Virus record (IMG/VR): IMGVR_UViG_3300037601_000024
Coordinates: 1 to 64,000 of that record
Strand: one strand, 5' to 3'
Length of the DNA: 64,000 bases
Source: a virus
Lineage: Duplodnaviria > Caudoviricetes
Shown in pieces: positions 11,425 to 41,180 of this stretch. The notes under the pieces were generated by a model. That model did not search any database and was not told where the DNA came from. It saw only the letters and a program-made list of their open reading frames with translations. The translations under genes were made by a program, and so were the position numbers. Each line of letters starts with the position of its first letter. The first letter of the stretch is position 1.

Positions 11425-11892
11425 ATGATCCATGTGATTCGCCAAAAGCAAATCATTACACCGAATCGGTTGATGGAATTGATCGTGTTTGAAGACAAAG
11501 ACGAACAATTATTGGCGGCATACATGAAAGTTGGCCTGGCCAGACAACCGGTTAAGCTCCTGATGGGGAAAGACTATCGCGACTTCAAACGAGAGGATCG
11601 CGCCTTAGCTAACTGGAAGAAACGAGCCATATGGTTGCCTGGTAAAAAGATCAAAATCGAATCTACTTTAGCTGCAATTACAGCAGGTTATGATAATGAC
11701 GACGAAAGTCTCGATCAGATGGCTGCTGAGTTTTCTGTCAAAGCGATCAAGGGATTAGCGTTCGTCCGGAAACAGGTTGAGACGCGTCCTCTCGCCGCCG
11801 CGAAAGCGGAAGTAGCGAGAGCCAAATATTTGGAAGTTAAAGAAGAACGAGAGCAATACTATGACGGCGTAGAAGGGTCTGGCCTGTTTTAG
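11425..11892 (+). CDS. Hypothetical protein carrying the shared C-terminal tag
   Basis: ACGGAG SD before ATG 11425; ends EREQYYDGVEGSGLF. Confidence 0.65.
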   Translation: MIHVIRQKQIITPNRLMELIVFEDKDEQLLAAYMKVGLARQPVKLLMGKDYRDFKREDRALANWKKRAIWLPGKKIKIESTLAAITAGYDNDDESLDQMAAEFSVKAIKGLAFVRKQVETRPLAAAKAEVARAKYLEVKEEREQYYDGVEGSGLF

Positions 11893-12036
11893 AATATTCA
11901 CGAAAATCTATGTTATGTGGCAAACTATCGATCGCGGTAATGGTTTATTTACTTTCCGCGACCGATTGTATATCAGTGTTGACATTCAATCCAATTCCGG
12001 ATTGATGTAAACAAGTTAGCACAAGGAGGGCGTCGC

Positions 12037-12468
12037 ATGCCACGTGGTGTCGCAGGAAGACCACAGCAATCTATCAAGACGGGTGAAACATTCGCGCTCG
12101 CGGAGTGGTTCAACAAGAACGTTGATTTTCTTACTGAACTGACGAACGAAGAACTCGCAGAACAGCTCGGCTATACACGGCCGAATATCATCAGCATGTG
12201 GCGCACGGGACGCACCCGCATTCCGCTCGATCGGCTGACGAAGCTCTCAGAACTTTTGAAGGTGGATCTTTCCTTCCTTCTGCCGCTATGGGTGGAACAA
12301 TACGGCGGTGCTGAAGCCTACACAGGTGTCATGAAGATACTCCAATCATCGGTCTCAGAAAGCGAGGCTAAATTGGTTGCAGCGGCACGTGAGCACACAA
12401 AGGGACGCGACTTCAAATTAAAGGCTGGTGCTGCCAAGCAGCTTGCCGACCTAATTACGCTGAGCTAA
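12037..12468 (+). CDS. XRE/Cro-family HTH transcriptional regulator
   Basis: TNEELAEQLGYTRPNIISMWRTGRTRIP HTH; AAGGAGG SD. Confidence 0.8.
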   Translation: MPRGVAGRPQQSIKTGETFALAEWFNKNVDFLTELTNEELAEQLGYTRPNIISMWRTGRTRIPLDRLTKLSELLKVDLSFLLPLWVEQYGGAEAYTGVMKILQSSVSESEAKLVAAAREHTKGRDFKLKAGAAKQLADLITLS

Positions 12469-12541
12469 TTGTAAGTCCCACTTGATAATCTCCGGTTGTC
12501 GTGCTTAATTGTAAGCACACGGTGACAATTCGGAGGCAAGT

Positions 12542-14875
12542 ATGACTAAGAGACAATTCTCAGCCGAACAGGCAACCCTCGCAATCGAGAAAACCGCAAA
12601 GCTGTTGGCGCAAGAGAGTGTCAGTGTAACCACACGTGGCGCTCGCGCTTTCATCGAATGGCACCCATCCGGTGACATCAAGCGGATCAACCTACCAATG
12701 GTGCCTCGCGACGCTGACCAAGAGTTTTTGGACGCGCTGCAAGGCTTTTTGGATCATGAGGTAGGTCACGCTCTCAACACCGAGCCGCTGAAGGGTCGAG
12801 CGCTCGAAGATTCCCACATTAAACGCCTTGGTGTGCATCCCCAGGTTATTCGTTCGATGACGAATATCATCGAAGATGTGCGCATTGAAGACGCTATGGA
12901 AGAGCAATTCCGTGGCTGTAAGCGCAACCTCGAAGCGGTTCGCAAGTTCTTCGTCGAGCGTATGCGGCGGCCGACGCTGGATAGCATCGACCCCTCCCCT
13001 GCCGGCGACGATGAGCGTCGCGCATATATTCTCCCAATCTTCTTCCGAGCACGCGGCGGTCAGACCGCTTGTGAGCACTTCATGGATGACATGGAATTGT
13101 GGAAGTACGTCGAACCCTACGACAAATTATTTCCAGACCTGTCGGAGCGTCTTGCCGCTCTAGCGAGCACCGAAGACGCCGCAAACTTGGCGGCAGAGAT
13201 CGTCGAGCGGACGTGCGAAACCACCCCGCCGAAAGACGATGAAGCTGAGCCTGAAGATCAGCAGCAAGACGGCGAAAGCGGCGATGACCAGACTGGTGAC
13301 GAACAGGGCGAAGAACGTGAGTCCGACCAGTCGGGGGACCAAGAAACAGAGGCAGATAACAATGATGATGAAGGGGGACAGGATGACGATCCCGAGCAGA
13401 ACGAGGATGAAGGCTCATCCGATGGGGACCAGCCTGGCGATGACGACGAGGATGATGAGGGACAGAGCGGTGACGACGGTGACACTGACGACTCCGAAGC
13501 CGAACCTGAACCATCTGACGACGGCGGAGATGACGGAGATAGTGGCGAAGATCAGGGGGATGATGAAGAGCAAGACGACGCCAATTCTGACGCTTCCGAC
13601 GGAGACGATGAAGATGCCAGCGACAACTCTGAATCTGGCGACTCAGACGATGACGCCGGGGAGAATTCCGACAGCGCGAACGATGATAATGAGAGCGAGA
13701 CAGATGGGGAAGACGACGGCTCTGAGGCAGATGATAATGACAGCGAGACGGATGGATCAGAAGACACGTCTGACGGCGCCGAAAACGCTGAGAACCAAGA
13801 CCTAGACGGCGCCGACGATACTGAAGTCGATAGCAGCGAGGATCAGTCTGGCGATATCGAAGAAGTCGAGAAAATGATTATCGGCGTCGACTATGACAAG
13901 ATCGAAGACTTCGACAACTGCGCCGCAGATGAGTTTGAGCGCCTGGTTGGCGATATGGACACCAGCGACCCGTATCACATCTTCTCTCGGGACCATGACT
14001 TAATCGAGCCTGCACAAGCTTACGAGGACGCTCCCGTAAAGTATTGCGAAGACCGTGTTGAGAAAACGACTGGCGTTCTTCGAAAGGAATTACAGCGCCT
14101 AATTGCTGCACGGTCCCTCTCTCATATGGTGCCAGGCAAGCGATCGGGCCGCATTCATCCTGCGTCCCTGCACCGCCTTCGTGTCGGGGACGACCGTGTC
14201 TTTGCCAGGAAACATGAGGTTGTGACCAAAGACACGGCCGTGTCGCTCGTGGTCGATTGCTCCGGTTCGATGCACGGCGCCAAAATCCAAGTCGCGATGG
14301 AGTCCGCATGGGCGTTCTCGGACACGCTCAGCCGATTGAACGTCGATAACGAAGTTCTCGGCTTCACGACTAACCACCCGTATTATGGAAACAGTAGAGC
14401 TAAATCTTACGACCCCGTTGAGATCGAGCGCTATTGCCGGACGCTTGGAGTTTCATCGCATCGCGTCCGACAGGTTCCGCTCTACGTTCCCATCTTCAAA
14501 GCATTCGACGAGAACTTCGGGATCGAGCAGAAGCGCCGCATGGCCTCCTATCCTGAAAAAGGTCTGCAAGGCGCGAACGTGGACGGCGAGTCCGTTCGGA
14601 TTGCTGCGCACCGTTTGATGCAGCGCCGTGCGCAACGTCGCGTGATGATCGTCTTCTCTGACGGTATGCCAGCCAGCGATGTCGCCGGCGAATTGCTCGA
14701 TGCCGATCTCAGAAAGACGGTCAAAGAGCTGGAAGCCGCGAAGATCGAAACGATCGGCATCGGTATCCAGACCAAATCGGTGAAGCAATACTACCCGAAG
14801 AGCTTTGTGATCAAGAACTCCGAAGAGCTTGCGGGGACCACTCTTCGCGAGCTGAAGGCAATTCTCACAAACTAA
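12542..14875 (+). CDS. CobT-like VWA protein with N-terminal HExxH domain and long acidic linker
   Basis: HEVGH and IIEDVRIE at the N-terminus, about 215 aa D/E-rich linker, MIDAS DCSGSM and SDG in the C-terminal VWA. Confidence 0.8.
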   Translation: MTKRQFSAEQATLAIEKTAKLLAQESVSVTTRGARAFIEWHPSGDIKRINLPMVPRDADQEFLDALQGFLDHEVGHALNTEPLKGRALEDSHIKRLGVHPQVIRSMTNIIEDVRIEDAMEEQFRGCKRNLEAVRKFFVERMRRPTLDSIDPSPAGDDERRAYILPIFFRARGGQTACEHFMDDMELWKYVEPYDKLFPDLSERLAALASTEDAANLAAEIVERTCETTPPKDDEAEPEDQQQDGESGDDQTGDEQGEERESDQSGDQETEADNNDDEGGQDDDPEQNEDEGSSDGDQPGDDDEDDEGQSGDDGDTDDSEAEPEPSDDGGDDGDSGEDQGDDEEQDDANSDASDGDDEDASDNSESGDSDDDAGENSDSANDDNESETDGEDDGSEADDNDSETDGSEDTSDGAENAENQDLDGADDTEVDSSEDQSGDIEEVEKMIIGVDYDKIEDFDNCAADEFERLVGDMDTSDPYHIFSRDHDLIEPAQAYEDAPVKYCEDRVEKTTGVLRKELQRLIAARSLSHMVPGKRSGRIHPASLHRLRVGDDRVFARKHEVVTKDTAVSLVVDCSGSMHGAKIQVAMESAWAFSDTLSRLNVDNEVLGFTTNHPYYGNSRAKSYDPVEIERYCRTLGVSSHRVRQVPLYVPIFKAFDENFGIEQKRRMASYPEKGLQGANVDGESVRIAAHRLMQRRAQRRVMIVFSDGMPASDVAGELLDADLRKTVKELEAAKIETIGIGIQTKSVKQYYPKSFVIKNSEELAGTTLRELKAILTN

Positions 14876-16243: not shown

Positions 16244-16828
16244 ATGATCAAGATGGGGTGCTTTGGTTCAGTGGTCGCGTTCTCGCCAAAAACGAAGACC
16301 TGCCAGGATTGTCCGGTGAACAAGCAATGCGCAGCCGAAGTGTTCAGTAAAGAGGAAACCACCTTGCAGGCTATCGAACGAAAAGAGACTGAGCGCGACA
16401 CAGAAGACGCGACCCTTTTCAGCAAGAAACACCACAAGATCGAAGACCTTCCGAATGCCGCTTACCACAAGGTGAAGCGATTTTTCGCCACCAGGCGCCG
16501 GTACTTCACCGCGAAAGCGACAGGTAAGCCGATTGGACGCGCTGCTAAAGATTACGAGGCGATGATGAAGAACGGAATCGACTTCACGATGATGCGGATG
16601 CGCCTCAACCCGTTCAAGGAAGGCGGACACTATCCGCACATGCGCAAGATCGTCGGCATCATTTTCGATCTCGAATATTTCAAAACCAAAGACGTCGCCG
16701 AAGAGCTGAAGAAGCAAGGCTACAATTCACACAAATCGACAAGCTCAACGCTGGCCAGCCGAGGTATCAAAGTCTTGGAAATGGCCGGCGTAATTAAGAA
16801 CGATGGAGGCACATATTGTCTGTCATAA
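16244..16828 (+). CDS. Hypothetical protein, Cys4 N-terminus and winged-helix-like C-terminus
   Basis: CFG...CQDCPVNKQC; C-terminal STLASRGIKVLEMAGVI. Confidence 0.55.
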   Translation: MIKMGCFGSVVAFSPKTKTCQDCPVNKQCAAEVFSKEETTLQAIERKETERDTEDATLFSKKHHKIEDLPNAAYHKVKRFFATRRRYFTAKATGKPIGRAAKDYEAMMKNGIDFTMMRMRLNPFKEGGHYPHMRKIVGIIFDLEYFKTKDVAEELKKQGYNSHKSTSSTLASRGIKVLEMAGVIKNDGGTYCLS

Positions 16829-19800
16829 TGACCATGCTGGGAGTTCGATCTCACTTTTCACTCGGTGAGAGCACTCTCAAACCCGAAGACATCAAGCGTA
16901 TCGCCAAAGAGGCAGAGCAATCGAAGGTTGTCATCTGTGACACGATGACGATCAACGCCTTGATTGAGACCTCGAAGCTCGCCGACGACACGTTTGATCC
17001 GCGCTTTGGGGTCGCCTTGCGTGTGGTCGATGATATCACCATACGCGATAAGAAGACGCGCCAGAGCATCTATTTCCCCAAAGTGTACCCTCGCAACTGG
17101 GAAGCCGTTCAAGCGCTCTTCCGCGCTGTCTCTGAGGCGCACAGAGGTGATAACTTCTACATGGTGCCGCGCATGTCCTGGGAGATGTTCTTCCGGATGC
17201 TCGAACAGGGTGACTTCACTGTCACGTCCGGTGACTTCTATGGCGTTCTGGAGCGCAAAGATGCGGTCGCAAAGTGTGAAGCCATTCGGAGTAGCGCTCG
17301 CGACTTCTACGTGGAGCTGACGCCGGTTCCGACTGGATATCACGACCGCGTCAATCAGATCGCCGCGTTTCTGGTGAAGCACGGTGACTTTAAGCCGCTC
17401 CTGTCATGGCCAACCATGTACGACAAAGATGGCCACCAATCGTTCGTGATCAATCGCGGCATCCAGAAGCGTTCGAGCTACGCCAAAGAGGTTTTCCTAA
17501 ACCAGCCGGTACACGAAGCGTACCACGCACCCTCCCCTTCTGAGCTGGTCGCTTACGTCAAAAGCGCCGCTGAACGGTTGGAGAAGATCGAGCCAGGACA
17601 CAAAGCCGTATGGAAGCAAGCAATCCTGAACCAACACGAGTTCTTCGACGCCTTGGACTATAAGTGGGAGAAGCAACCAATCGCGCTTCCAAACCTCGCT
17701 GAAGATCCCGACGAGCGCGTCAAAGAGCTTTGCGTGGCAGGTCTGAAGGAACGCATGAAGGCGCACGTGTTCGGTGAGCACATCTCTGCGGCCGATTACA
17801 AGTCAAAGTACCTTCCGCGCCTGAAGTACGAACTTGGCATCCTGAAAGACATGGGTTTTGCCGAATACTTCCTGCTCGTGGATAACCTCGTGCGCTGGTG
17901 TAAGTCGAACGGCATTCTGGTTGGACCGGGTCGTGGATCGGTCGGCGGTTCGCTGGTCGCTTATCTGATGGGGATCACAGACGTTGACCCTATCCGTTTT
18001 GGATTGATCTTTGAGCGCTTCATCAACCCTTCCCGTAATGACCTTCCTGATATCGACTTGGACTTCATGTCCACGCGGCGCCAGGAAGTGATCGACTATC
18101 TCGTCGAAGAGTTCGGCGAAGAAAAGGTTGCCGGTATCTCTAACTACGGTGTGCTTGGCTCTGCGTCTGCGATCAAGGATGTTGGCCGTGTGTATGCGCT
18201 TGATGCCGCCAAGCTGACAGTGTCGAAGTACATCCCGAAGGTTCACGGACAGCCAGTCGATCTCGCGACGGCGGAGAAGGAAGTCGCTGAAATCTCCACG
18301 CTCGCCGATGACCACCCTCAAATGTGGAAACACGCGGTCGGTCTCCAAGGCACAATGCGAAGCTACGGAAAACACGCCGCCGGCACGATCGTGGCAGGCT
18401 GCAACATCTCAGACCTGGCAATTGTCGAAAACCGATCCGGTGAGCGCACCATCAATTGGGACATGCGCGTTGCTGAAAGTATGGGACTGGTGAAGCTGGA
18501 TATCCTTGGCCTCTCCACGCTCGATACGATCGCCAGAGCGGTCGACAACATCAAGAAACGGCACTCGAAGGACGTAGACATTCTGTCTATCCCGCTCGAT
18601 GACGAAAAGACGCTGAAGGCATTCTCAGAAGGTAGAACGATCGGCGTGTTCCAGTTCGAGGGTGGTGCTGCTCGCCGCATCCTCAAAGACATGTCTAAGG
18701 TCAACACCGTTGTCTTCAATGATATTGTCGCAGCGAACGCGCTCAACCGTCCCGGTCCTATCGACGCCGGTCTGGTTGAAAAGTACGTGGACGCCAAGAA
18801 CGAGGAAGTCGAGAACGAGCTGCCTCACCCGAACATGGCTGACGCGTTGGACGAAACATACAACGTCATCGTCTATCAGGAACAGGTAATGCAGGTGGCT
18901 GTGGACTTGTGCGGCTTCTCACTCTCCGAAGCTGACACGCTCCGGAAAGCTATGGGTAAGAAAGACAAGAAACTCATGGCGAAGCTGAAGGACCAGTTCA
19001 TCGACGGGGCGGAAAGCCACTCCGGAATGGATCGTGACCTCGCCGAAGACTTGTTCGATCAGATCGAAGTGTTCGCCGGATACGCGTTCAACAAATCTCA
19101 CGCCGCAGAATACTCGCTGATCTCCTACCAGTGCATGTGGCTGAAGGTCCACTATCCGGTCGAGTTCTACGCCGCAGCGCTGTCCACGGTGAAGGAAGAC
19201 AAGCTGAAGCCGATCTTGAAGGATGCGCTTGAAGCGGGGATCGAAGTTCTGCCGCCGGATATCAATCTCTCAGAGCGCGATTTTGTGATCGCGAACGATA
19301 AGACACTCATAACACCGCTTTCACGCGTCAAGCGCGCTGCTGGACGCGCTCCAGAGGTAATCATGAGCATTCGCGCAGAAGGAAAGATTCTGAGCACTGA
19401 CGACCTCAAGAAACGTCTTACAGAGAAGAAGCTGGGACGTTGGTGTAACAAGTCGGTCATCGCGAACCTAGACGCCGTTGGTGCGTTCGCACACGTCGAG
19501 CCGGGTCAGAAACCGCCGCTCGATGACAGCCGGATCAAAGACCAACTCACTCTGATGCCTGGTCTGGTCACCCGCGTCCTGCGCGTCGATGAAAAGATCC
19601 CGCAGGACAAGCACACGAAGGCGCGCATCATCGGTTTGGTGAAGAATTACTCAGAAGCCGACGAACATGCCGTCCACTGCTCACCAGGTATCGGCAAAAG
19701 AGCTGCATTTATGGCAGTCGCCGATTGTCCCAATCATTCTGAAGAGAATGAGAAGATGTTCGCCAAAGGTCGATCATTCGATTACTGCCGAGAAGCTTTG

Positions 19801-20154
19801 GCCGGCGCCGGTCTGTCGGTTCACGATGGCTACTGGACCGGACTGCTGAAGCGGATCAAAGACGACCGCATCATTTCGCCGGATGAAATCAAGACTTACT
19901 CTCCCTTCCTTGATCAGGAAGTCGAGCTGCTGAAGCCGCAATTGATCATCACACTTGGCTCAAATGCGATGCGCCATTTCATTCCGGAGTTGAAGGGTGG
20001 GATAATGGATCACGTTGGGTCCACCCACTTCCTTCCGAAGCTGGATGCCACCGTTCTGATCGGTTTCAATCCTGGCATGATCTACCATGACCGGGACAAA
20101 ATGAACGACCTTGAAGAGGTCTTCAAGAAAGCCGCAGAAATTATCGGTGCTTAA
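16828..20154 (+). CDS. dnaE: DNA polymerase III alpha (family C) with C-terminal UDG-like domain
   Basis: PHP-like N-terminus, GPGRGSVGGSLVAYLMGITDVDP, FERFINPSR..LPDIDLDF, KLDILGL, VYQEQVMQ, YAFNKSHA; ORF track opens at 16816. Confidence 0.93.
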   Translation: MTMLGVRSHFSLGESTLKPEDIKRIAKEAEQSKVVICDTMTINALIETSKLADDTFDPRFGVALRVVDDITIRDKKTRQSIYFPKVYPRNWEAVQALFRAVSEAHRGDNFYMVPRMSWEMFFRMLEQGDFTVTSGDFYGVLERKDAVAKCEAIRSSARDFYVELTPVPTGYHDRVNQIAAFLVKHGDFKPLLSWPTMYDKDGHQSFVINRGIQKRSSYAKEVFLNQPVHEAYHAPSPSELVAYVKSAAERLEKIEPGHKAVWKQAILNQHEFFDALDYKWEKQPIALPNLAEDPDERVKELCVAGLKERMKAHVFGEHISAADYKSKYLPRLKYELGILKDMGFAEYFLLVDNLVRWCKSNGILVGPGRGSVGGSLVAYLMGITDVDPIRFGLIFERFINPSRNDLPDIDLDFMSTRRQEVIDYLVEEFGEEKVAGISNYGVLGSASAIKDVGRVYALDAAKLTVSKYIPKVHGQPVDLATAEKEVAEISTLADDHPQMWKHAVGLQGTMRSYGKHAAGTIVAGCNISDLAIVENRSGERTINWDMRVAESMGLVKLDILGLSTLDTIARAVDNIKKRHSKDVDILSIPLDDEKTLKAFSEGRTIGVFQFEGGAARRILKDMSKVNTVVFNDIVAANALNRPGPIDAGLVEKYVDAKNEEVENELPHPNMADALDETYNVIVYQEQVMQVAVDLCGFSLSEADTLRKAMGKKDKKLMAKLKDQFIDGAESHSGMDRDLAEDLFDQIEVFAGYAFNKSHAAEYSLISYQCMWLKVHYPVEFYAAALSTVKEDKLKPILKDALEAGIEVLPPDINLSERDFVIANDKTLITPLSRVKRAAGRAPEVIMSIRAEGKILSTDDLKKRLTEKKLGRWCNKSVIANLDAVGAFAHVEPGQKPPLDDSRIKDQLTLMPGLVTRVLRVDEKIPQDKHTKARIIGLVKNYSEADEHAVHCSPGIGKRAAFMAVADCPNHSEENEKMFAKGRSFDYCREALAGAGLSVHDGYWTGLLKRIKDDRIISPDEIKTYSPFLDQEVELLKPQLIITLGSNAMRHFIPELKGGIMDHVGSTHFLPKLDATVLIGFNPGMIYHDRDKMNDLEEVFKKAAEIIGA

Positions 20155-21462: not shown

Positions 21463-22350
21463 ATGGCAGGATTGAGAGACCGCATCGCGGCAAAACGTCA
21501 GGCAATCGCTGACAAGAGCGCTGGCTTCGAACGTTCGTTCAAATGGTCAGTTGGGAAAACGTATTTCCGCCTCCTCCCAGGTAAGGCCGAAGCGGAAGAA
21601 TTCTTCGAAGAAATCGGGGTCCACTGGATCAAGTCCAAAGGCAAAGTTGTCACCTCTGTTGGTGACCGCGAAATTTGCTTCGGCGAACCGTGTCCGATCC
21701 GCGAGGGTATCGAAAGCGTCATGGCTCACGCACGTGACATCGGCGACGACGATATGCTCAAGGAAGCAAAAGACATGCTCGCCAAACCGCGCTTCTTCGC
21801 GAACGGTATCATCATCAAGGCTCCCGGCGAGTTTGAAAAAGACAAGCCGGAACTGCTCGAATTCTCCGAGCGGACTTGGGACCAAATCCTTTCGCAAATG
21901 GAAGACATGATCGAAGAACTGGACGAAGGCGCGGACCTCACCAAAGAAGGTCCATTCGCTCTTGACGGCGGCGTTGTCTTCGTTCTGGAAAAATCGGGTT
22001 CGGGTCTGGAGACGCGTTACAACGTCTATACCCACTCGAAGAAAGCGAAAGCTCCCGCAGGTGTGCTCGAAGCAGCAGTCGATCTCGCTGGCTATAAACG
22101 CTCGCAGTTCGATGAACGGGGCCGCAAGGCACTCGCTGCTCTTGGTGCCATGATCGGTGAAGACCTGTCAGACTCCGTCGCCGACGCTCTGACAGCACCG
22201 GCTCAGACCAAGCAACTCGCCGCGCCAGAATCCACCGACGATGACTTTGTCGACGAAGACGACGTGATTGAAGGCGAAGTCGCCGAAGAGACTCCCGCAG
22301 AGGAAGAACTCTCCGACGATGACATTCTGGCGGACCTCGACGACCTGTAA
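21463..22350 (+). CDS. Single-stranded DNA-binding protein (gp32-like)
   Basis: FRLLPG, HW, C...CPI, RFFAN, EKSGSGLETRY; strongly acidic C-tail DDDILADLDDL. Confidence 0.7.
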   Translation: MAGLRDRIAAKRQAIADKSAGFERSFKWSVGKTYFRLLPGKAEAEEFFEEIGVHWIKSKGKVVTSVGDREICFGEPCPIREGIESVMAHARDIGDDDMLKEAKDMLAKPRFFANGIIIKAPGEFEKDKPELLEFSERTWDQILSQMEDMIEELDEGADLTKEGPFALDGGVVFVLEKSGSGLETRYNVYTHSKKAKAPAGVLEAAVDLAGYKRSQFDERGRKALAALGAMIGEDLSDSVADALTAPAQTKQLAAPESTDDDFVDEDDVIEGEVAEETPAEEELSDDDILADLDDL

Positions 22351-26694: not shown

Positions 26695-26903
26695 ACTCAA
26701 CAGATAGAGAAGAATATTTCTATGTGCTGGTTGCCAGAGCGGCACGAGCGCTACTGACCGAGAAGAATACCAACGGTATGGCGTTTCAGCTCGGCGGTGT
26801 TCGAATAAACATTCAGGACGCTGACACTCAAATTGCTGTCGGCAAAGATAGTCCGTCGATTCAGCACCTATCAGAACGAGCGAGACGACTTTATGAGATA
26901 TAG
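26691..26903 (+). CDS. Hypothetical protein
   Basis: ATGA overlap with sbcD; 70 aa. Confidence 0.5.
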   Translation: MNSTDREEYFYVLVARAARALLTEKNTNGMAFQLGGVRINIQDADTQIAVGKDSPSIQHLSERARRLYEI

Positions 26904-27405
26904 AGAAACTTGGAAACCTGTCGCGGGTTATGAGGGTTATTACGAAGTTTCAGACGCTGGTAGAGTTCGCAGTATTCGAACCAACTTCGGCAATCCTCGT
27001 ATCCGAGGTCTCCGACAGTCAACCACTCATGATGGTTATCGTCGCGTTTGCCTTTCTAAAGACAATAAGAAGCGTCACGCTCATGTCGCCCACCTAGTGT
27101 TAGAGGCGTTCGTTGGACCACGGCCAGCCGGGATGCAAGCGTGCCACGGACCTGCCGGCAAGACTCAAAACAGTTTGTCCAACCTGCGGTGGGATACCCC
27201 TGAAGCTAACTATCAAGATCGCGCCAGAGACGGAAATGTAAAGGCTGGCGACAGTCATCCGATGGCTAAGATTACCACTGCTGTTGCTCGTAAAGTTAAA
27301 CAATCACCCAGCTCGCTTACAGCGAGGCAAGTCGCTGAGAAGTTGGGAGTATCAATCCACACGGTTCGTATGATCCGACAGGGAAGAATTTGGAGAAAAG
27401 CGTGA
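26893..27405 (+). CDS. Free-standing NUMOD4-HNH homing endonuclease
   Basis: ETWKPVAGYEGYYEVSDAGRVRS (NUMOD4), VAHLVLEAFVG..P.GMQACH...NSLSNLRW..PEAN (HNH), C-terminal HTH. Confidence 0.88.
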   Translation: MRYRETWKPVAGYEGYYEVSDAGRVRSIRTNFGNPRIRGLRQSTTHDGYRRVCLSKDNKKRHAHVAHLVLEAFVGPRPAGMQACHGPAGKTQNSLSNLRWDTPEANYQDRARDGNVKAGDSHPMAKITTAVARKVKQSPSSLTARQVAEKLGVSIHTVRMIRQGRIWRKA

Positions 27406-29420
27406 AAATAACAAACGTAACAATCGAAAACTTCCTGGGGATTGGTACAGCAAAAATCAGTCTGCAAGATAAGGGACTGGTATTAGTCCAGGGACAAAAC
27501 TTAGACGATCCGTCGGCGGACTCCAACGGCTCCGGCAAGTCGTCTATGATCGATGCTGTGTTCTGGGGTCTCTACGGTAAGACCGCGCGTGGCCTTGGTG
27601 GTGACGATGTGATCAACCGAGTGATCGGCAAGCAGTGCGTCGTAACGATTGAGCTGGAAGACGGTACACAGACAGCGAAGATTACTCGCTGGAGAAAAGC
27701 CAAAGGTTTCCATAAGCGATCCGGCGTTGTTATCGAGATCAACGGTTCCGATTGCTCAGGCGGCACAGACGCACTTACACAAGCCGAGATCGACAAGGTT
27801 GTAGGTTGCAGCGAGCAAGTCTTCGCCGCCGCTGTCTACGCAGGACAGGAAGCGATGCCAGACATCCCTTCCCTCACCGATCGCCAGTTGAAGTCACTGA
27901 TCGAGGAAGCTGCCGGCATTGACCTGATCGAGGAAGCTTACGTCGTTGCGCGGGAGGTTGTTCGCGATGCACAGGAAGCGCAAGATAAGTTCTCCGACGC
28001 CTTAGACTTAGTTCGTTCATCGGTTGAACGCGTCGAGGGTCAGATAGCTACCGTCGAAGATGACATCGAAGGGTGGGAAAAGACACGCGAGTCTCGTGTG
28101 AAACAAGCTACGGATGAAGCTGCGGAACTGAAAACACGCGCCACCGACGTAAAGAAAGAAATCGCGGACTTCGACGAAAAGGGAATCAACGATCAAATCA
28201 AAAAGATCGACGACGAGATATCGGCTTTGGATGAGCAAATGCAGGAGATCGATAAAGAGATCGCCGGCGTTTCCGAAGAGAACGAGAAGGCTCGCAAACT
28301 TGGTGAAGACGTTTTAAACGCACGTCACTTATTCGACGACGCGACCAAAACCGCAAAACGGATCGCCGAGACATTCAAGAAACAGAAGAGCAAGTTTGAA
28401 AACGTCGAGTCTCAAGTCGGCGAACCTTGTGGTGAATGCGGCAAGCTCACGACTGAAGAAGACTTGGCTGATGTGAAAGCGAATCTGAAAGAGACTTTGC
28501 GCGAGCTAAAGGAAACGTATGAAGGCGCTCGCGATGACGCCGCTGATCTAAAAGCTAAATTGGAAGAGTGTGAGACCGCGCGCGATGAATTCGAAGCGCA
28601 ACGCACCGACATTAGCGCACAGCAAGCGCAGCAGCGCGAGTTAACTTCTAAACAGCGCGATCTTACCTCTGACAAAAACAAGCTCTCAGCGACGCTCTCT
28701 GAGCTTCCCAGACTGAAGGATCGATATTCCAATTTGAAGGAGCGTTTCGATGCGAAGCGTCAGGACATCAAGAAGCTCAAGGAAGAGAAAAACCCGCACG
28801 GAAAATCCCTCGATCGTTACAAGACGGAACTGGTCGAAGCTCAAAAGGCGGTCGAAGAGAAAGAAGTTGAATACGCCAATGCGGCGGAACATCTGGTGGT
28901 CGCCAAAGCGGCAGCGCAGGTCTTTGGACCTAAAGGCGTCCGAGCGCACATTCTTGATACCGTCACACCTTTCCTCAACGATCGCACGGCTCACTACCTA
29001 AGCACGTTGTCAGACGGCTCTCTCGAAGCGATCTGGTCAACGCTGACCGAAGGACGCGACGGCGAGCTGAAAGAAAAGTTCACAATCGGCGTGGAGAAGT
29101 ATGGAACAGGTACGTTCGCATCACTTTCCGGCGGTGAGAAGCGGAAGGTTAGACTAGCGACTACCCTCGCCTTGCAGGACTTGGTTGCGTCACGTGCGAC
29201 CAAGCCAATCAATCTATGGATCGGTGACGAAATCGATACCGCGTTGGATCCCGCAGGACTGGAGCGTCTTATGACGCTACTGGAAATGAAAGCGCGTGAA
29301 AAAGGTACGGTTCTAATCGTGTCTCACCACGACCTGAAGGATTGGGTGCGCGACACGGTTGTCGTCACGATGGAAGACAAAGCAGCAAGAGTGGAGGGAG
29401 TTCTATGTCCAGTCCCCTAA
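27402..29420 (+). CDS. sbcC: SbcC/Rad50 (gp46-like) SMC ATPase
   Basis: NGSGKSS Walker A, coiled coils, CGEC zinc hook, LSGGE signature, IGDEID, VSH; GTG start overlapping the HNH stop. Confidence 0.9.
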   Translation: MKITNVTIENFLGIGTAKISLQDKGLVLVQGQNLDDPSADSNGSGKSSMIDAVFWGLYGKTARGLGGDDVINRVIGKQCVVTIELEDGTQTAKITRWRKAKGFHKRSGVVIEINGSDCSGGTDALTQAEIDKVVGCSEQVFAAAVYAGQEAMPDIPSLTDRQLKSLIEEAAGIDLIEEAYVVAREVVRDAQEAQDKFSDALDLVRSSVERVEGQIATVEDDIEGWEKTRESRVKQATDEAAELKTRATDVKKEIADFDEKGINDQIKKIDDEISALDEQMQEIDKEIAGVSEENEKARKLGEDVLNARHLFDDATKTAKRIAETFKKQKSKFENVESQVGEPCGECGKLTTEEDLADVKANLKETLRELKETYEGARDDAADLKAKLEECETARDEFEAQRTDISAQQAQQRELTSKQRDLTSDKNKLSATLSELPRLKDRYSNLKERFDAKRQDIKKLKEEKNPHGKSLDRYKTELVEAQKAVEEKEVEYANAAEHLVVAKAAAQVFGPKGVRAHILDTVTPFLNDRTAHYLSTLSDGSLEAIWSTLTEGRDGELKEKFTIGVEKYGTGTFASLSGGEKRKVRLATTLALQDLVASRATKPINLWIGDEIDTALDPAGLERLMTLLEMKAREKGTVLIVSHHDLKDWVRDTVVVTMEDKAARVEGVLCPVP

Positions 29421-29746
29421 AAGGAAAATACATCTGCTTCACTGGTAAGCTGGATGACTTCACACGAGCCGATCTCGAGGAAATGGCTGAAGAGTACGGC
29501 TTCACGTTCATGAATAGCGTGACCAAGTCGACCGACATTTTGGTGAAGGGTGAAAAGCCAGGAAAGACCAAGGTCGATAAAGCGTTTAATCAGGGTGTGC
29601 GTATCATCAGCGCCGAGGATTTTCTTCATCTACTGATGGCCAACGATGATCTAGGTCTTCCAGAGCCGAAGGTGAAGGAAACCAAGACACAAAAGAAAGA
29701 GCGCCTTGGTTACTACGAGCAACACGAGCAAGCCGGAATCTTTTAA
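29405..29746 (+). CDS. Stand-alone BRCT-domain protein with shared C-terminal tag
   Basis: LKGKYICFTGKL..TRADL...G.TF.NSVTKSTDILV.GEKPG.TKVDKA...GVRII is a LigA-type BRCT pattern. Confidence 0.8.
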   Translation: MSSPLKGKYICFTGKLDDFTRADLEEMAEEYGFTFMNSVTKSTDILVKGEKPGKTKVDKAFNQGVRIISAEDFLHLLMANDDLGLPEPKVKETKTQKKERLGYYEQHEQAGIF

Positions 29747-29752
29747 CAGTCA

Positions 29753-30457
29753 TTGTTGACTATGAAGACAATCGAATGGAACGCCGGAGTGAAGATACTG
29801 AGTCCGGTCAACGCGCACCACTTATCAGGGATAGACGAAATGGAAGGATATCACGGCAGCACTGGTCGATCTACGGATTTAGGTATCTTTGACGAGGTAG
29901 CTGAAGCGCACGCGACCGGCTTCAAAGACGAGACTGCCGAAGAGCCGCACGCGTTCTCCTACCAGGCCGACCTTGTCGAACTGGACAAGCTGTTTGGCGA
30001 ATTGCCTGGTGAACATGCCGATGTGTTCGTTTCCGCGATCCTCTGGGACGAAGAGCAAGACGCACGAACCGGCGAGTCTATTCGGATCGCTCCCGGTGAG
30101 TTGCTGGTCCCCTATCGCCTGCGCCTGGGTAATAAGGGTCAGCTTCAGTTCCTTGTGTGGTGGAGCCGCGAAGAAGGACATCGTGCACCGTTGGTCGTGA
30201 ACCGATCAACTTTGGAAGACCTTCTGCCAGCGACCTATGCCAAGCTGGAAGAGAAATTCCTGCAACACAATAGCCGACTGATCTACCTGCTCGAACGAGA
30301 GAATAAGGCGGTGATCGGATCACGAAATCGCGTGATCGAAAGTCTCAATACGGCGATCAAGACGCGCTCCGAAGTGGACCTGCTCAAAGAGATGCAGCGC
30401 CGCGAAGAAGAGCGCACTCAGTCTTACGCAGACGATGACCGCGCGGGGATGTTCTGA
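29753..30457 (+). CDS. Hypothetical protein with shared C-terminal tag
   Basis: Ends EERTQSYADDDRAGMF; start may be ATG 29762. Confidence 0.65.
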   Translation: MLTMKTIEWNAGVKILSPVNAHHLSGIDEMEGYHGSTGRSTDLGIFDEVAEAHATGFKDETAEEPHAFSYQADLVELDKLFGELPGEHADVFVSAILWDEEQDARTGESIRIAPGELLVPYRLRLGNKGQLQFLVWWSREEGHRAPLVVNRSTLEDLLPATYAKLEEKFLQHNSRLIYLLERENKAVIGSRNRVIESLNTAIKTRSEVDLLKEMQRREEERTQSYADDDRAGMF

Positions 30458-30708
30458 TGGACCCCGATTACGCTGAAATGTTCTATCCCGAATACATCGA
30501 CCTGGGGCAAGGCAGAAGACTTCCTGCCGGCGCCATGACGTTCGACGCCAGGAAGAAAATGCTGCTCGATTTAATAAACGGCGGCGGACTGTCTAAAGAC
30601 GCACTAGAGGCTCTGCTCGAACAGACGAAGAATATCGAGATCGTCGAAGATGAGAAAGACGTTCGCCAGCGACACATCGACAACGATGAGATGGCGGGGA
30701 TGTTCTGA
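30457..30708 (+). CDS. Hypothetical protein with shared C-terminal tag
   Basis: TGATG coupling; ends VRQRHIDNDEMAGMF. Confidence 0.65.
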   Translation: MDPDYAEMFYPEYIDLGQGRRLPAGAMTFDARKKMLLDLINGGGLSKDALEALLEQTKNIEIVEDEKDVRQRHIDNDEMAGMF

Positions 30709-31049
30709 TGGCCGCACTCTCAAAAGGCCAATTGGACGTACTTCTTAGTAATCCAGGCAATCGCGATTTTTACGACAAGCTCTTCGAAGACATGAAAGAG
30801 GCTTCGACTCTTTCTGATCTTCTGACGAAGCCGATCAAGCACGAACCCGCCGTGTTTTGGGTCGATGAAGCGCACGAATTTGAGAACGAGCGTGAGTACA
30901 CCTGGCCATCCTTTCAAGATCGCTGGCATATCGACACGTTTCGCAGAGAAGAAATAAAGCGCTCATACGCAGCCGAGCTTGAAGAAAGCCGCAAGGTCAA
31001 AGAACGCACAGATTTTTACGAAAACCAAGAAGACGCAGGAGCATTCTAA
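30708..31049 (+). CDS. Hypothetical protein with shared C-terminal tag
   Basis: TGATG coupling; ends ERTDFYENQEDAGAF. Confidence 0.65.
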   Translation: MAALSKGQLDVLLSNPGNRDFYDKLFEDMKEASTLSDLLTKPIKHEPAVFWVDEAHEFENEREYTWPSFQDRWHIDTFRREEIKRSYAAELEESRKVKERTDFYENQEDAGAF

Positions 31050-33649: not shown

Positions 33650-34633
33650 ATGTCAGGACTGACAACTCCCCAAGACGGTTACAAACCGTTCCGTTACCCG
33701 CAAGCTTACGAGTTCTGGAAACGCCAGCAGCAAACGCACTGGCTCCCAGAAGAAGTTCCAATGGCGGATGATGTGAAGGACTTCCACCAGAAGTTAACGC
33801 CGGCAGAGGTGAACCTGCTCACCCAGATTTTCCGGTTCTTCACTCAAGGCGACGTGGAGGTGAACGACTGTTATCATCGCCACTATCTCAGCACGTTCAA
33901 ACCGACTGAGATCGTGATGATGCTGACGGCATTTGCTAACATGGAAACCATCCACGTCGCCGCCTATTCTCACCTGCTCGATACGGTCGGAATGCCAGAA
34001 AGCGAATACGCCGCATTCCTCGACTACGAAGAGATGAAGGCCAAGCACGACTATCTTCAGCAGTTCAACGCCGACGATCCGTATGAGCTTGCTAAGACGA
34101 TGGCCGTGTTCGGTGCATTTACAGAAGGATTACAACTGTTTGCCAGCTTCGCGATCCTTCTGAACTTTCCACGCTGGAACCGGATGAAGGGTATGGGACA
34201 GATCGTGACATGGTCCGTTCGCGATGAGTCTCTGCACTGCGAAGGTGTCATGTGGCTGTTCCATAAATGGCTGGAAGAACACCCCGAAATCGACCGCACT
34301 CTTTTGGGTGTGGAGCTGCGCATGGCTTGCCAGGAAATCGTGAAGATCGAAGACGCCTTTATCGACCTTGCATTCGAGATGGGTCCGGTGCGCGGTCTGG
34401 AGGCGTCGGAAGTCAAAGAGTACATCCGATACATCGCCGACATGCGTATGGGTGGCCTCGGATACAAGCCTATCTACGGCATTGAAAAGAACCCCCTCCC
34501 CTGGTTGGCGGAAATCCTGAACGGCGTGGAGCACGCGAACTTCTTTGAGGCTCGTGCGACCGAATACTCCAAAAGCGGAATGACCGGTGATTTTGCCGAT
34601 GTGTTCCGGGAAATGGACGGGAATAATACGTAA
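33650..34633 (+). CDS. nrdB: Ribonucleotide reductase class Ia beta
   Basis: HWLPEEVPM..D, FFTQGD, ETIHVAAYS, FTEGLQLFASF, VRDESLH, NFFE..ATEY. Confidence 0.95.
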   Translation: MSGLTTPQDGYKPFRYPQAYEFWKRQQQTHWLPEEVPMADDVKDFHQKLTPAEVNLLTQIFRFFTQGDVEVNDCYHRHYLSTFKPTEIVMMLTAFANMETIHVAAYSHLLDTVGMPESEYAAFLDYEEMKAKHDYLQQFNADDPYELAKTMAVFGAFTEGLQLFASFAILLNFPRWNRMKGMGQIVTWSVRDESLHCEGVMWLFHKWLEEHPEIDRTLLGVELRMACQEIVKIEDAFIDLAFEMGPVRGLEASEVKEYIRYIADMRMGGLGYKPIYGIEKNPLPWLAEILNGVEHANFFEARATEYSKSGMTGDFADVFREMDGNNT

Positions 34634-35630: not shown

Positions 35631-35633
35631 CGT

Positions 35634-36107: not shown

Positions 36108-36111
36108 GGGA

Positions 36112-37766: not shown

Positions 37767-37800
37767 CTCCCTTGGTCCTCGGATCAAGGGAGTTCTTTTA
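37767..37800 (+). terminator. Intrinsic terminator
   Basis: CTCCCTTGGTC-CTCG-GATCAAGGGAG followed by TTCTTTT. Confidence 0.6.
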
Positions 37801-38456
37801 TGTCGCCTATTAACGTCGAAGCCATGCAAGATGACTGGCTTAAACAACGTATCGACAAGCTCGAACGGATAATGAAGGGGTATGTTGAGCAGGCTTTGGA
37901 CAACGCCACTGTAGTGGCGCTAATCAATCAACAGGCGACCCCAACAGCAGATGAAATTGAAAACAGTCATGATCTGGCGCTCGACCTATGGAGTCAAGAC
38001 GAACGGATATCTATAGATGTTCAGCTTGAGATTGATGAAAAAGAACAAAAACACGAATGGGAAGTTATGCTATTTCTTCCCTCGCTGCTCGAGGGCGACA
38101 GTGTCGTCGCGATGTATCATTCCTCTAACTATATCGCACCAGGCGAAATCCCCATCGACGAAATTCCTTTCATTCAAGAATGGCTTCTTCGAGAGTGTGA
38201 GCGCGTTGCATGGCATATCGAGCGGAATGAGGAAGAGAACAGAGCGAACTATCGCCACGATCGAGACAAGAAGTGGGATGAGCGCCAAGCGAGAGAAGAG
38301 CGCGAGCGTATGGAGCTGGAACGTCAACTGGCCGCTGAAGCAGCTCGCCTAGAAGAGGAACGTCTTCAGAAAGAAGCCGCTGAGCGCCGCGCGGCCGAAG
38401 ATGCCTGGATCGATCAGGAAGTCCGCCTGGCTGATCCATTGGTGGGTGCTTTTTAA
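37800..38456 (+). CDS. Hypothetical coiled-coil protein with tag-like C-terminus
   Basis: E/R/A-rich coiled coil; ends VRLADPLVGAF. Confidence 0.6.
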   Translation: MSPINVEAMQDDWLKQRIDKLERIMKGYVEQALDNATVVALINQQATPTADEIENSHDLALDLWSQDERISIDVQLEIDEKEQKHEWEVMLFLPSLLEGDSVVAMYHSSNYIAPGEIPIDEIPFIQEWLLRECERVAWHIERNEEENRANYRHDRDKKWDERQAREERERMELERQLAAEAARLEEERLQKEAAERRAAEDAWIDQEVRLADPLVGAF

Positions 38457-38498
38457 TGTGCTACAATATAAGTAATTAATGACTGACTGGAGTATGAC

Positions 38499-38837
38499 AT
38501 GCCAATTGGAATTGTAACCTCGCAGGCCGAAATCGATTTGGTTCAGGACATCTGGCCAGAACCAACTGACGGCATGCCAAGTGTCCGGAGCGGTATCATT
38601 GAATTCGCGCCGGCCAAGTCGCGCCAGATCGTGGACGAAATTCAGAACCATAATGCCGCTGATGACGCCGCCGCTACGCGCCTCATTAACCGGATCGTAG
38701 ATATCGCCGGTGCATCTTTCATTCCTGGCGATGATAACCCGATTGAAATCGACGACGAAACCGACGATATAGATCAGGAAGACAGCGCGGACGGTGAAGA
38801 CTTTATCCGTGACTGGACAGAAGAAGAATTCGAATAG
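38499..38837 (+). CDS. Hypothetical acidic protein
   Basis: GGAG SD, followed by a hairpin terminator. Confidence 0.55.
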   Translation: MPIGIVTSQAEIDLVQDIWPEPTDGMPSVRSGIIEFAPAKSRQIVDEIQNHNAADDAAATRLINRIVDIAGASFIPGDDNPIEIDDETDDIDQEDSADGEDFIRDWTEEEFE

Positions 38838-38875
38838 GAGCGCGCCTCCGTACTTGCTGAACTGAAATGCGCTCC

Positions 38876-38910
38876 AAGAAGCCGGACCACCCTCGTGGGT
38901 CCGGCTTCTT
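38876..38910 (+). terminator. Intrinsic terminator
   Basis: AAGAAGCCGGACC...GGTCCGGCTTCTT. Confidence 0.6.
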
Positions 38911-39021
38911 CATGTCTGGCATACAGCCTTTCCCATGCGAATAGCCTTGATGGCATTAATAGTCAATGTTACATGATTATTGAGCAAGAAAGCTCACAGC
39001 AAACACGAAACGGAGGCAACC

Positions 39022-39732: not shown

Positions 39733-39753
39733 TCTGGGAGGATGGACGAAAGG

Positions 39754-39784
39754 AAGAGCGGTGCTTATACGGCACCGCTCTTTG
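39754..39784 (+). terminator. Intrinsic terminator
   Basis: AAGAGCGGTGC-TTATACG-GCACCGCTCTTT. Confidence 0.65.
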
Positions 39785-39960
39785 CGCGTCTCGTAAGCGC
39801 ACAGAAGCGCGAGCACTATAACCGGACACATCACACCTAATTCACAAAACGCGCGCTGAGCACCGCTTAAAATCGCTCCAGCGAAGCCAACGAAACCCGA
39901 TGGATTGTAATTCAATCTAAGGTTACAAAGAGATCATAGCAGTTGAGGAATAGATTATTT

Positions 39961-40230
39961 ATGCGAGAACTGAATATTAGAGGCTACAAGACCACGACGG
40001 AACCGATCGAAGAGGGAGATGTCGCGGTTGTTATCCGGCGAGATGGTGAAGTTGAAGTCGCGATTAAGTCGGCGGACGAAAACGGCCATAACCCTTCTGC
40101 CAATACAGAAGACCTCCTGTCGGCGTATGCGCTCGTGACCTTGCTCGCCAACCCTGAGTTGATGGACGCCGCGCGTGCGGACGCCTTCAGCAAAGTTCAG
40201 GACGCGATGAAGTTGAGGGTTGTGAACTGA
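39961..40230 (+). CDS. Hypothetical protein
   Basis: 89 aa from ATG 39961. Confidence 0.5.
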   Translation: MRELNIRGYKTTTEPIEEGDVAVVIRRDGEVEVAIKSADENGHNPSANTEDLLSAYALVTLLANPELMDAARADAFSKVQDAMKLRVVN

Positions 40231-40292
40231 GCCGCTTGCGTCTCAGTTCTATGTGTGTAATTGTAAGTCATTGCTGATTATGCGGAGGCGAC

Positions 40293-41180
40293 ATGACTGG
40301 TTTCCCGGTTTATAGCGAGATCGATCCCAGCCAGTGCCTCTACCAAGGCATCCCGGCAATCGCCTTAGATGGTCAAAAGTCTACCGACTGTTGGGATCCC
40401 TGGTTGAGCGACACAGCGCGAGCGTATGACAGTTACGCCGTTCAAACTGATCGCGCGCATAGACTGACCGATTGGTTGAATATCATCGGTGACGACAAGT
40501 GGCATGACCCCGACTTTCTTTCTCCGGAACAAATATTCCACTTGAACGCCATTCAATCTCAAATTGATTGGAATGAAAACCAATTGAAGATGCGGCGATC
40601 AGGTGAAGGGCGCAGCTATAAATCGCAGATCGCAACATTGGCCACTTCCGAAGATGACACAGTCATCACGGCAATCGATTGTCCGAAAGATTACCAACGA
40701 GACATTACCGACCAGGGAGGCTTGGTCGCCGAGAACACCGCCACCGCGAAAGTTATTTACATCGGCGGTTTCGAATACATTTGTCGCACACAGATGAACT
40801 TTGGCAGGGATTCCGGTACAAAGACGGTCTGGTGGGACAACGTAGGAGTGTGTGAGCCGGACGGCACCAGTCAGATGATGGAGGACATCGGCCAATACAA
40901 CGTAATGTCGTCGCGCCTGAAGCGTGAGGTGACCCCTCCAGACGGCACCGGAAGTTGGGTCGACTTCGCTCGCGACCACCTACTCCCAATCCACATGGAA
41001 AAGTACGGTTTCATGCAGCCTATCGATCACCACATGGATTGGGTCGAAGAGCATATGATTGCATCGCCGCCTCTCAATTCGAAGTGGATTACCTGCGCAG
41101 CTACGCGCCTCAAGAACGCAGAGGCCAATGCTGAGCGCCTGGCATTCTATCAAGATGACGCTATGACCGCGATGTTTTAG
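40293..41180 (+). CDS. Hypothetical protein with shared C-terminal tag
   Basis: GGAGG SD behind a 22-bp motif; ends ERLAFYQDDAMTAMF. Confidence 0.65.
   Translation: MTGFPVYSEIDPSQCLYQGIPAIALDGQKSTDCWDPWLSDTARAYDSYAVQTDRAHRLTDWLNIIGDDKWHDPDFLSPEQIFHLNAIQSQIDWNENQLKMRRSGEGRSYKSQIATLATSEDDTVITAIDCPKDYQRDITDQGGLVAENTATAKVIYIGGFEYICRTQMNFGRDSGTKTVWWDNVGVCEPDGTSQMMEDIGQYNVMSSRLKREVTPPDGTGSWVDFARDHLLPIHMEKYGFMQPIDHHMDWVEEHMIASPPLNSKWITCAATRLKNAEANAERLAFYQDDAMTAMF

Follow-up and report, generated by a model that had tools for sequence, protein, structure and literature searches.

Along the 64-kb window analysed here, a stretch of DNA that makes up most of a 72-kb virus record (IMG/VR record IMGVR_UViG_3300037601_000024), seven phage proteins end in a common short tail, and all seven are encoded in the DNA replication and repair module. 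The question that this locus raises is what such a tail might do on proteins whose bodies are unrelated. Judging from the way in which it is conserved, we consider it moderately probable that the tail (also called the tag below) is a short linear docking motif, which tethers accessory proteins of replication and recombination to one co-evolving receptor.

The tail and the proteins that carry it

Six of the seven genes end in R-x3-[Y/I]-x6-[G/A]-x-F-stop, the positions agreeing exactly when counted back from the stop codon, and the seventh ends VRLADPLVGAF. Arginine occupies position −14 in 6/6 and glutamate −15 in 5/6, tyrosine is at −10 and glycine at −3 in five of the six, and the terminal phenylalanine is present in all. 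Two to five acidic residues fall within −9 to −5 of the window tags, ahead of the terminal Phe, and a charged helical stretch precedes each tag. These C-termini, with their residue counts and register, are exactly as quoted in the initial annotation of this DNA.

The tagged genes, all on the plus strand, are spread across 30 kb. The first, t171 (11377..11892), is an orphan encoded directly after the DnaG-type primase, with the tag EREQYYDGVEGSGLF at 11845–11889 and a TAG stop. Four of the seven are tandem neighbours (29405–31049). Of these, the BRCT protein (29405..29746), of about 113 residues and encoded directly after SbcC, carries ERLGYYEQHEQAGIF at 29699–29743 (stop TAA); t234 (29753..30457), from an orphan family, carries ERTQSYADDDRAGMF at 30410–30454 (TGA); and two small orphans follow, namely t83 (30457..30708), with VRQRHIDNDEMAGMF at 30661–30705 (TGA), and t113 (30708..31049), directly before RuvC, with ERTDFYENQEDAGAF at 31002–31046 (TAA). 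Farther along, t218 (37800..38456) is an orphan whose gene immediately follows that of the DnaQ-type exonuclease, and its variant tag, VRLADPLVGAF at 38421–38453 (TAA), comes after a long charged helix. The last carrier, the orphan t295 (40293..41180), ends in ERLAFYQDDAMTAMF at 41133–41177 (TAG). A Pfam domain is recognised in just one carrier, the BRCT protein (E=5.8e-16), the six others being without a Pfam or PHROG family. Inspection of the gene ends showed that the tag is absent from the tail, lysis and late genes of the window phage.

An excess of the motif over chance was sought among all 645 open reading frames (ORFs) of at least 40 amino acids in the six frames of the 72-kb record, with 300 residue shuffles for comparison. 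The pattern R.{3}[YI].{6}[GA].F$ matches 6/645 ORFs, exactly these six genes, where 0.023 are expected (shuffle maximum 1); the looser [AGSTV][GA][MILA]F$ matches all seven, with 0.37 expected by shuffling. The matches are real plus-strand genes only. All-against-all BLASTP of the carriers aligns only their last 15–24 residues, the bodies being unrelated, and the DNA encoding the tag differs in codon choice among the carriers, with TAG, TAA and TGA stops all in use, so that this part of the initial description also stands. If the core R-x3-Y-x6-G-x-F is not anchored to the stop codon, the sole other real gene to match is that of NrdB, with RATEYSKSGMTGDF in its C-terminal tail (34553..34594, plus strand), 12 residues short of the protein end. 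About 0.8 such matches are expected by chance in the proteome, and this look-alike is probably not part of the tag system.

Conservation in orthologues

Public assemblies supplied orthologues of six carriers (every one except t171), at the loci L001–L004, L018 and L019, one orthologue locus lying on a 139-kb contig binned as Hyphomonas. The initial annotation had regarded orthologues without the tag as the outcome that would speak against it; the tail is retained in all of them, the sole exception being the L001 copy of t218, in which a one-nucleotide change in a T/A run extends the frame by a further 8 residues. The other t218 orthologues end LVGSF (L002) and LVGVF (L003).

The hallmark residues of the tail are retained at body identities of 18–60%. 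Against the L003 and L004 orthologues, t83 keeps 12/15 tag residues (80%) with a body identity of 29–32%, and t113 likewise keeps 12/15 (80%) with a body identity of 20–21%. The BRCT orthologues in L003, L004 and L018 are tagged (AEVGIF, SEAGMF and AETGIF, respectively) at body identities as low as 27%, and the t234 orthologues (P0005–P0008, L018 and L019) end ...Y-x5-6-[AGF]G[ML]F; across the BRCT and t234 families, ER-x3-[F/W/S]Y...G[I/M/L]F persists at 18–27% body identity. Among the t295 orthologues, P0002 (59% identity) ends ERLAFYEKDSMAAMF and P0003 (54%) ends ERREFYKANQTALF. The stable positions are −14 (Arg), −10 (Tyr), −3 (Gly) and −1 (Phe), whereas −2 and the spacer vary. On the evidence of these alignments, purifying selection is acting on the tail at the protein level, and the earlier claim of a portable tag conserved as protein is upheld, the tag being kept in orthologues while the bodies diverge.

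A separate observation concerns the DNA after t218: the spacer at 38457–38498 (TGTGCTACAATATAAGTAATTAATGACTGACTGGAG), which holds an extended −10 and an operator-like element, is almost identical in L001–L003 despite differing flanking genes.

Lineage-specific versions in related phages

The nearest cultured relatives of the window phage, as judged by DnaE (35–42% identity, full length), are Rhizobium phage RHEph10, Stenotrophomonas phage BUCTxx99, Pseudomonas phage nickie and the SSU5 group of phage-plasmids, and the order of the module is identical in all of these and in the window phage. Variant tails occupy the same gene slots, namely after the primase, between SbcC and RuvC, and beside DnaQ; tags in relatives were counted from the ends of genes that had been annotated or called. 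A tag is carried by the gene that follows the primase in L018, RHEph10, nickie and SSU5, and in L018 this gene is one of five tagged ones, the BRCT gene being another. In RHEph10, the tails are ...KTYAGNPRFGMF (on a WGR-domain protein encoded after the primase), ...ENFGRF and ...KAYETNPNFGRF (before RuvC). Those of nickie are ...EVYGSGWGAFG, ...ERAKQYENSKTDFGGWA, ...AKYDIGGWA, ...GMGAFA and ...DAGGWS, those of SSU5 are ...MTGWATW and ...CPTWATW, and four proteins of BUCTxx99 have G-x-W ends.

A metagenome scan anchored on RuvC, which gave 34 loci of the same supergroup, added about two dozen distinct tails, examples being NPNWGLF, NPLWGMF, NPIWGTW, HPQWGTW, DFGAW, WGAW, RFGSW, YGSW, DFGAFA and GFGLFA. 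Beside the window type, the types found in other lineages include FG[MR]F, FGGWA, WATW and NPxWGTW. What is common to the lineages is a core, [aromatic or small]-G-x-[F/W], which either ends the protein or stands one or two small residues before its end; a tyrosine is often found 8–10 residues upstream of the core, and N-P stands right before it in many lineages. RuvC itself is tagged in one lineage, L057/L058 (...GGFGEFAH), and in four lineages a small protein encoded between RecA and SbcD consists of an ExoX-like_C domain and a tail. The recognisable cargo is therefore BRCT in the window, and WGR, ExoX-like_C and RuvC in relatives. Two phages that combine CobS and CobT with other replisomes, the Roseobacter phage CRP-810 and the Gordonia phage SteveFrench, have such tails on 0/57 and 0/66 genes, respectively.

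There is a tendency for tags ending in F to occur in phages of Alphaproteobacteria, and tags ending in W in phages of Gammaproteobacteria. The tails of the host epsilon subunit were considered as the cause of this split and rejected, because W is present in both an alpha- and a gammaproteobacterium.

The relatives show other features at their gene ends and in the same region of the genome. In RHEph10 (L007) and a Magnetospirillum element (L020), at least 13/66 and 9/24 proteins, respectively, end in -AA, often -EAA, which is not accounted for by ATGA start/stop overlaps and may be a second, different C-terminal signal. Between SbcD and SbcC, L003 (7297–7638) and L004 (7300–7638) encode a protein of 112–113 residues ending ...EDEIPF, which resembles the tip of the bacterial single-stranded DNA-binding protein (SSB). 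An SSB-type IPF tip was searched for in the window and not found, the slot there holding an HNH endonuclease (26833–27405) and a 70-residue ORF. At L044/L045 (10642–13755), nrdAB is replaced by an intein-interrupted class II ribonucleotide reductase (RNR), with an HNH gene adjacent, and nickie (L009, 36500–37264) has, between nrdA and nrdB, a pair of small paralogues whose ends, ...LIPEW and ...LDVKW, resemble that of its NrdB, ...KGLEW.

The tail as a probable docking motif

Four features, taken together, are the signature of a motif that is read by one co-evolving receptor: the tail is under selection as protein, the bodies that carry it are unrelated and evolve fast, its occurrence is confined to one module, and it is replaced as a set between lineages. 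It is from this conservation pattern that we infer action by binding, and through a single reader. According to the scheme that we favour, the core, [aromatic or small]-Gly-x-[Phe/Trp], at or no more than two residues from the C-terminus, would be docked by the receptor; in the window lineage, Glu-Arg-x3-Tyr and an acidic spacer precede the core, and the tag would tip a charged, solvent-exposed helical stalk. The tail would thus be an address label, bringing a changing set of small replication, recombination and repair accessory proteins to a common receptor, the hub of the phage replication and recombination machinery. The cargo would comprise the BRCT protein and six orphans in the window phage, to which the relatives would add WGR and ExoX-like_C adaptors and the RuvC resolvase. 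A hub of this kind is suggested because the cargo that can be named consists of sensors of DNA ends or nicks, an adaptor module and a resolvase; in cells, such proteins are gathered at sites of replication and repair by SSB or sliding clamps.

Some structural information can be added for t234, for which an AlphaFold2 (AF2) model was made from a 7-sequence alignment (mean predicted local distance difference test score, pLDDT, 73). The model has a disordered N-terminus, a confident alpha/beta core (residues 62–190) and a single exposed helix of about 40 residues (192–231), along which the confidence falls; the last three residues of the protein, after it, are non-helical. In this predicted structure, the tag is displayed at the tip of an exposed stalk, as would be expected of a docking peptide. 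A search of the PDB with the fold gave no match despite the confident core, and look-alikes of t295 and t234 in the ESM Atlas yielded nothing usable.

The initial annotation spoke of an addressing system in which one partner receives all the cargo. That reading is supported in part. The portable tag, swapped by lineage, is borne out, and a tag recognised by a single co-evolving partner would be expected to be replaced, as this one is, as a set by lineage variants; the partner itself is putative. Several points weigh against docking. The case for binding is the conservation pattern, and the receptor has not been found. There is hardly any constraint at −2, and in some lineages the aromatic is not the last residue but has one or two more behind it (nickie GGWA and L058 FGEFAH, as well as the L001 read-through), so that a free terminal carboxylate is not a universal requirement. 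The sampled lineages are mutually related, such that the independent replacements of the tag are few. Finally, the tail could be a transferable helical module that is kept for stability or turnover and not for docking.

The replication module and the candidate readers

The window opens with baseplate and tail-fibre genes, an endolysin-type peptidase and PhoH (from Pfam and PHROG matches), and siphovirus-type tail genes (tape measure and a GpJ-like tip) lie upstream of it. There follow a conserved protein of 238 residues (phrog_2500), the DnaB helicase and the DnaG primase; CobT (VWA), CobS (MoxR AAA+) and a DnaE-type polymerase of 1112 residues with a C-terminal domain resembling uracil-DNA glycosylase (UDG); a gp32-type SSB, a 5'-3' exonuclease, RecA, SbcD, the HNH endonuclease, SbcC and RuvC; and then class Ia RNR, ThyX, dUTPase, the DnaQ-type exonuclease and an ATP-dependent ligase. 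Family searches detected no clamp or clamp loader among the genes of the window phage. The same phage, of roughly 105 kb, was recovered on metagenome contigs of 102–112 kb, and it is probably temperate and seen as a prophage on a 3.27-Mb contig, since its DnaE is also recorded there. Queries of IMG/VR with t234 and t295 gave no close relatives, a tblastn search of a phage collection with t234 found none, and no further DnaE-UDG was present in a sample of 400 other genomes from the class of the Magnetospirillum genome G001. In all, more than 100 lineages of DnaE-UDG were recorded.

Of the partners listed in the initial annotation, the replisome or recombination machinery fits best, because all of the tagged genes lie in that module and the cargo includes BRCT, WGR, ExoX-like_C and RuvC. 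A host protease or chaperone, also on that list, is conceivable. The receptor candidates within and around it can be ranked, in descending order, as the gp32-type SSB; the DnaE-UDG polymerase; the host beta clamp; SbcCD; DnaB or the 238-residue protein encoded upstream of it; and CobS/CobT. As readers, CobS/CobT, the alpha subunit of class Ia RNR and a capsid-loading route are less likely. A more specific proposal, which we advance tentatively and with rather less than even confidence, is that a pocket on the gp32-type SSB or the DnaE-UDG polymerase reads the aromatic-G-x-aromatic tail in phages and phage-plasmids of the SSU5, RHEph10 and nickie types, and thereby assembles, where replication takes place, a swappable set of adaptors for repair and recombination that evolve fast. 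Such an arrangement would amount to an SSB-tip hub of reversed polarity, co-evolving by lineage.

The gp32-type SSB (21463–22350) is a possible reader, being abundant and multivalent and having a conserved tail of its own, of another sequence. It ends DDDILADLDDL (22315–22347), which is unlike the tags and is conserved across lineages (DDVLADLDSI in RHEph10 and DDLLAELDAL in SSU5). This tail resembles the acidic end of T4 gp32 and would constitute another docking tail besides the tags. As to DnaE (16816–20154), when a tag (36 residues) was co-folded with its residues 1–560 and the UDG-like domain (930–1112), the score was 0.01, a value that weighs on neither side. In favour of DnaE, the tags loosely resemble the segment at the C-terminus of Pol III epsilon, which the phage DnaQ does not have, and T7 offers a precedent for tails that dock on the polymerase. 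The phage polymerase may itself use the host clamp, because the motif KDQLTLMPGL at 19537–19566 lies just past the HhH domain, at the place occupied in E. coli alpha by the internal clamp motif, and D, Q, L and P of this KDQxELMPGL-type motif are nearly invariant in 102 DnaE-UDG homologues. In the UDG-like domain of the same protein, ADCPN and FNPG replace the family-4 motifs GEAPG and HP[SA].

SbcCD, and DnaB together with the phrog_2500 protein, are also possible readers. The latter protein (238 residues, 8198–8914) precedes DnaB in all phages of the supergroup and is represented by 530 clusters in a metagenome library. It was entertained as a hidden phage clamp, an idea that is ruled out by its all-helical AF2 fold (pLDDT 95). 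Comparison of the fold with the PDB gave no convincing match (Foldseek E > 1; best VIA Z 5.4 over 78 residues), the weak best matches being helicase-interacting helical domains (the N-terminus of Pol alpha p68 and SPP1 G39P) at a chance-level Z. A clamp was also sought among uncharacterised proteins of 250 and 170 residues, for which phmmer against PDB chain sequences gave nothing.

Alternative explanations

The tails might be clamp-binding motifs (CBMs) that load repair and recombination accessories onto the host beta clamp also used by the phage DnaE. This we think unlikely, but it is the rival to which we give most weight. It accords with the lack of a detected phage clamp, with the CBM-like KDQxELMPGL that DnaE keeps at the position of the E. 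coli alpha clamp motif, with cargo (resolvase, BRCT, WGR and exonuclease adaptor) that looks like a clamp interactome, and with the resemblance of x-[A/F/W]-G-[L/M/I]-F-COOH to the Pol II-type QLGLF and the alpha motif QADMF. In another phage type found with the RuvC query (L035, L039 and L055, with RuvC about 46–49% identical to that of the window), both neighbours of RuvC end in a canonical-looking ...KSLF plus 0–6 residues. The tags themselves, however, do not conform to the CBM definition (QL[S/D]LF or QLxLxL, with anchors at 4 and 5): Q at position 1 is absent, the anchors are spaced −4/−1, and −2, which would be the key Leu/Met anchor, is free (M, I, L or A in the window; Q, R, S, G, D, E or T in relatives). 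Moreover, the beta pocket and the DnaE motif are constant, in contrast to the tags, which shift by lineage (F...F, W...W, WATW). A different possibility, and a very improbable one in our estimation, is that the tails are substrate tags for CobS/CobT, the MIDAS (metal ion-dependent adhesion site) of the VWA protein capturing the acidic tail and the MoxR AAA+ ATPase remodelling or loading the tagged protein. VWA MIDAS sites bind extended peptides, and their MoxR partners remodel the bound protein (PMC7159879). The site in the phage CobT is intact (DxSxS, as DCSGS...SDG, residues about 570–720), both genes are conserved beside DnaE in all tagged lineages, and within the supergroup tag and pair are always found together. 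Yet CRP-810 and SteveFrench carry similar pairs without G-x-[F/W] tails, several variants have no acidic residues (RHEph10 NPRFGMF), and no CobST-specific signal was found. The suggestion of CobS/CobT in the initial annotation is accordingly not favoured, and its description of them as including a peptidase was mistaken, Pfam giving CobT, CobT_C/VWA and MoxR-type AAA+ and no peptidase domain.

Hydrophobic or aromatic C-termini serve as degrons, and it has to be considered whether the tails cause proteins of the early and middle phases to be broken down on schedule by a protease, either of the host or under phage control. In favour of this, the tagged proteins are small and lack enzymatic function, and the type of tag tends to track the host class (F alpha, W gamma), although this split may merely follow phage phylogeny. 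The tails do not look like the LAA ends of the ssrA type, the invariant Gly and the ER-x3-Y helix before it exceed the usual needs of a degron, and RuvC itself is tagged in one lineage; on balance we regard a degron as improbable, marginally less so than a CobS/CobT substrate tag. Mimicry of the C-terminus of the RNR small subunit, by which the tagged proteins would bind NrdA and couple dNTP synthesis to replication and repair, has in its favour that the NrdB tail is the sole other real gene product with R-x3-Y-x6-G-x-F. In addition, NrdB and tags both end in W in nickie, L050 and L060, with alike Tyr-to-aromatic spacing, and in L058/L059 NrdB DFSGF/DFSAF can be set beside tags DFGAF/GFGLF. 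The correspondence fails elsewhere: L044/L045 have a class II (B12-type) RNR (PF21995) and no NrdB, but nonetheless carry the tags ...RRFGSW and ...SSWGSW; the SSU5-type NrdB tail is E. coli-like (...LSQFADL) but the tags end in W; and in RHEph10, NrdB and glutaredoxin end DDEF/DDDF, unlike the FG[MR]F tags. Such mimics would also compete with NrdB, and we hold this explanation to be more doubtful still. Least credible of all, to our minds, is that there is no common reader, the tail being either a C-terminal helical module spread among neighbours by duplication and recombination or a capsid-loading signal. Four of the seven tagged genes do lie in tandem (29405–31049), and phages address proteins to capsids by short peptides (the capsid targeting sequence of T4). 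Against such spreading, the codons differ and the bodies are unrelated, the tagged genes are scattered over 30 kb, and the tag survives deep divergence in orthologues and is swapped as a set between lineages; as for capsid loading, also raised in the initial annotation, structural and late genes are without the tag, which makes it unlikely.

Comparison with known systems

If the tail is a docking motif, a close conceptual parallel is the SSB C-terminal tip (DDD[IL]PF-COOH), likewise an acidic flexible tail with a terminal aromatic, which docks replication, recombination and repair proteins. The polarity is reversed, however: the SSB hub is one tail-bearing protein with many clients that have pockets, whereas here many clients bear the tail, so that on the docking reading one reader must carry the pocket. 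The tags also differ in having no Pro-Phe and an invariant Gly at −3, and their carriers are not SSBs. T7 provides a second precedent, in that gp2.5 and gp4 are unrelated replication proteins that, like the carriers in the window, share an acidic tail with a terminal Phe; these tails, with their essential terminal Phe, are reported to dock on T7 DNA polymerase (PMC12339929 and references therein). The T7 system involves two proteins of known function and a known reader, whereas the tags are found on 5–7 mostly orphan proteins per genome and form a longer motif (ER-x3-Y...G-x-F). An acidic tail with a terminal aromatic describes the window tags but not those of all lineages (RHEph10).

Clamp-binding motifs (the beta-clamp QL[S/D]LF, the PCNA-interacting protein (PIP) box and the gp45-binding tails of T4) are similar in that a short terminal peptide brings many DNA enzymes, among them resolvases and nick-sensor proteins, to one ring, and the −4/−1 aromatic spacing of the tags recalls a PIP-type turn. 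The tags, though, have no Q and a free −2, no phage clamp was detected, and the CBM-like motif conserved in DnaE is a different one. A further parallel is offered by Pol III epsilon, whose C-terminal segment binds the PHP domain of alpha and is also a helix with a short tail and a conserved aromatic near the end (E. coli ...HEARLDLVQKKGGSCLWRA; Magnetospirillum ...AFVGKLKNAIWGRNSAEE). The phage DnaQ (189 residues) stops right after the exonuclease domain, and it is the adjoining gene that is tagged (t218 ...EVRLADPLVGAF). The likeness is loose and the tags are on proteins that are not exonucleases; it also went undetected by profile search, the tag profile having matched only designed repeat proteins, and no epsilon chain, among PDB sequences. 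With respect to capsid and compartment signals, the T4 capsid targeting sequence is N-terminal and cleaved, and the encapsulin peptide is C-terminal and of GSL type, whereas the tags are C-terminal, confined to genes of the replication module and of another consensus.

The tag system is thus one that works like the SSB tip, the clamp motifs and the T7 tails but fits the defining features of none. Searches of Pfam, PHROGs, the PDB and the literature found no family model, solved structure or paper for the tag consensus, in agreement with the statement in the initial annotation that no described system has it.

Implications

Should one receptor read the tails, several orphan proteins per genome would gain a shared role as clients of one hub. 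The group concerned is a large and widespread one, of temperate phages of about 100 kb and phage-plasmids, including the SSU5-type elements of Salmonella, E. coli and Klebsiella. The tag family reaches cultured and tractable members (SSU5, nickie, RHEph10 and BUCTxx99), some of them with cargo domains that can be named, which makes it directly testable. For these phages, the motif would be a handle on the organising centre of a DnaE-based replisome with no apparent clamp, clamp loader or tau of its own, and it may yield a portable peptide with which proteins could be recruited to, or blocked at, that centre.

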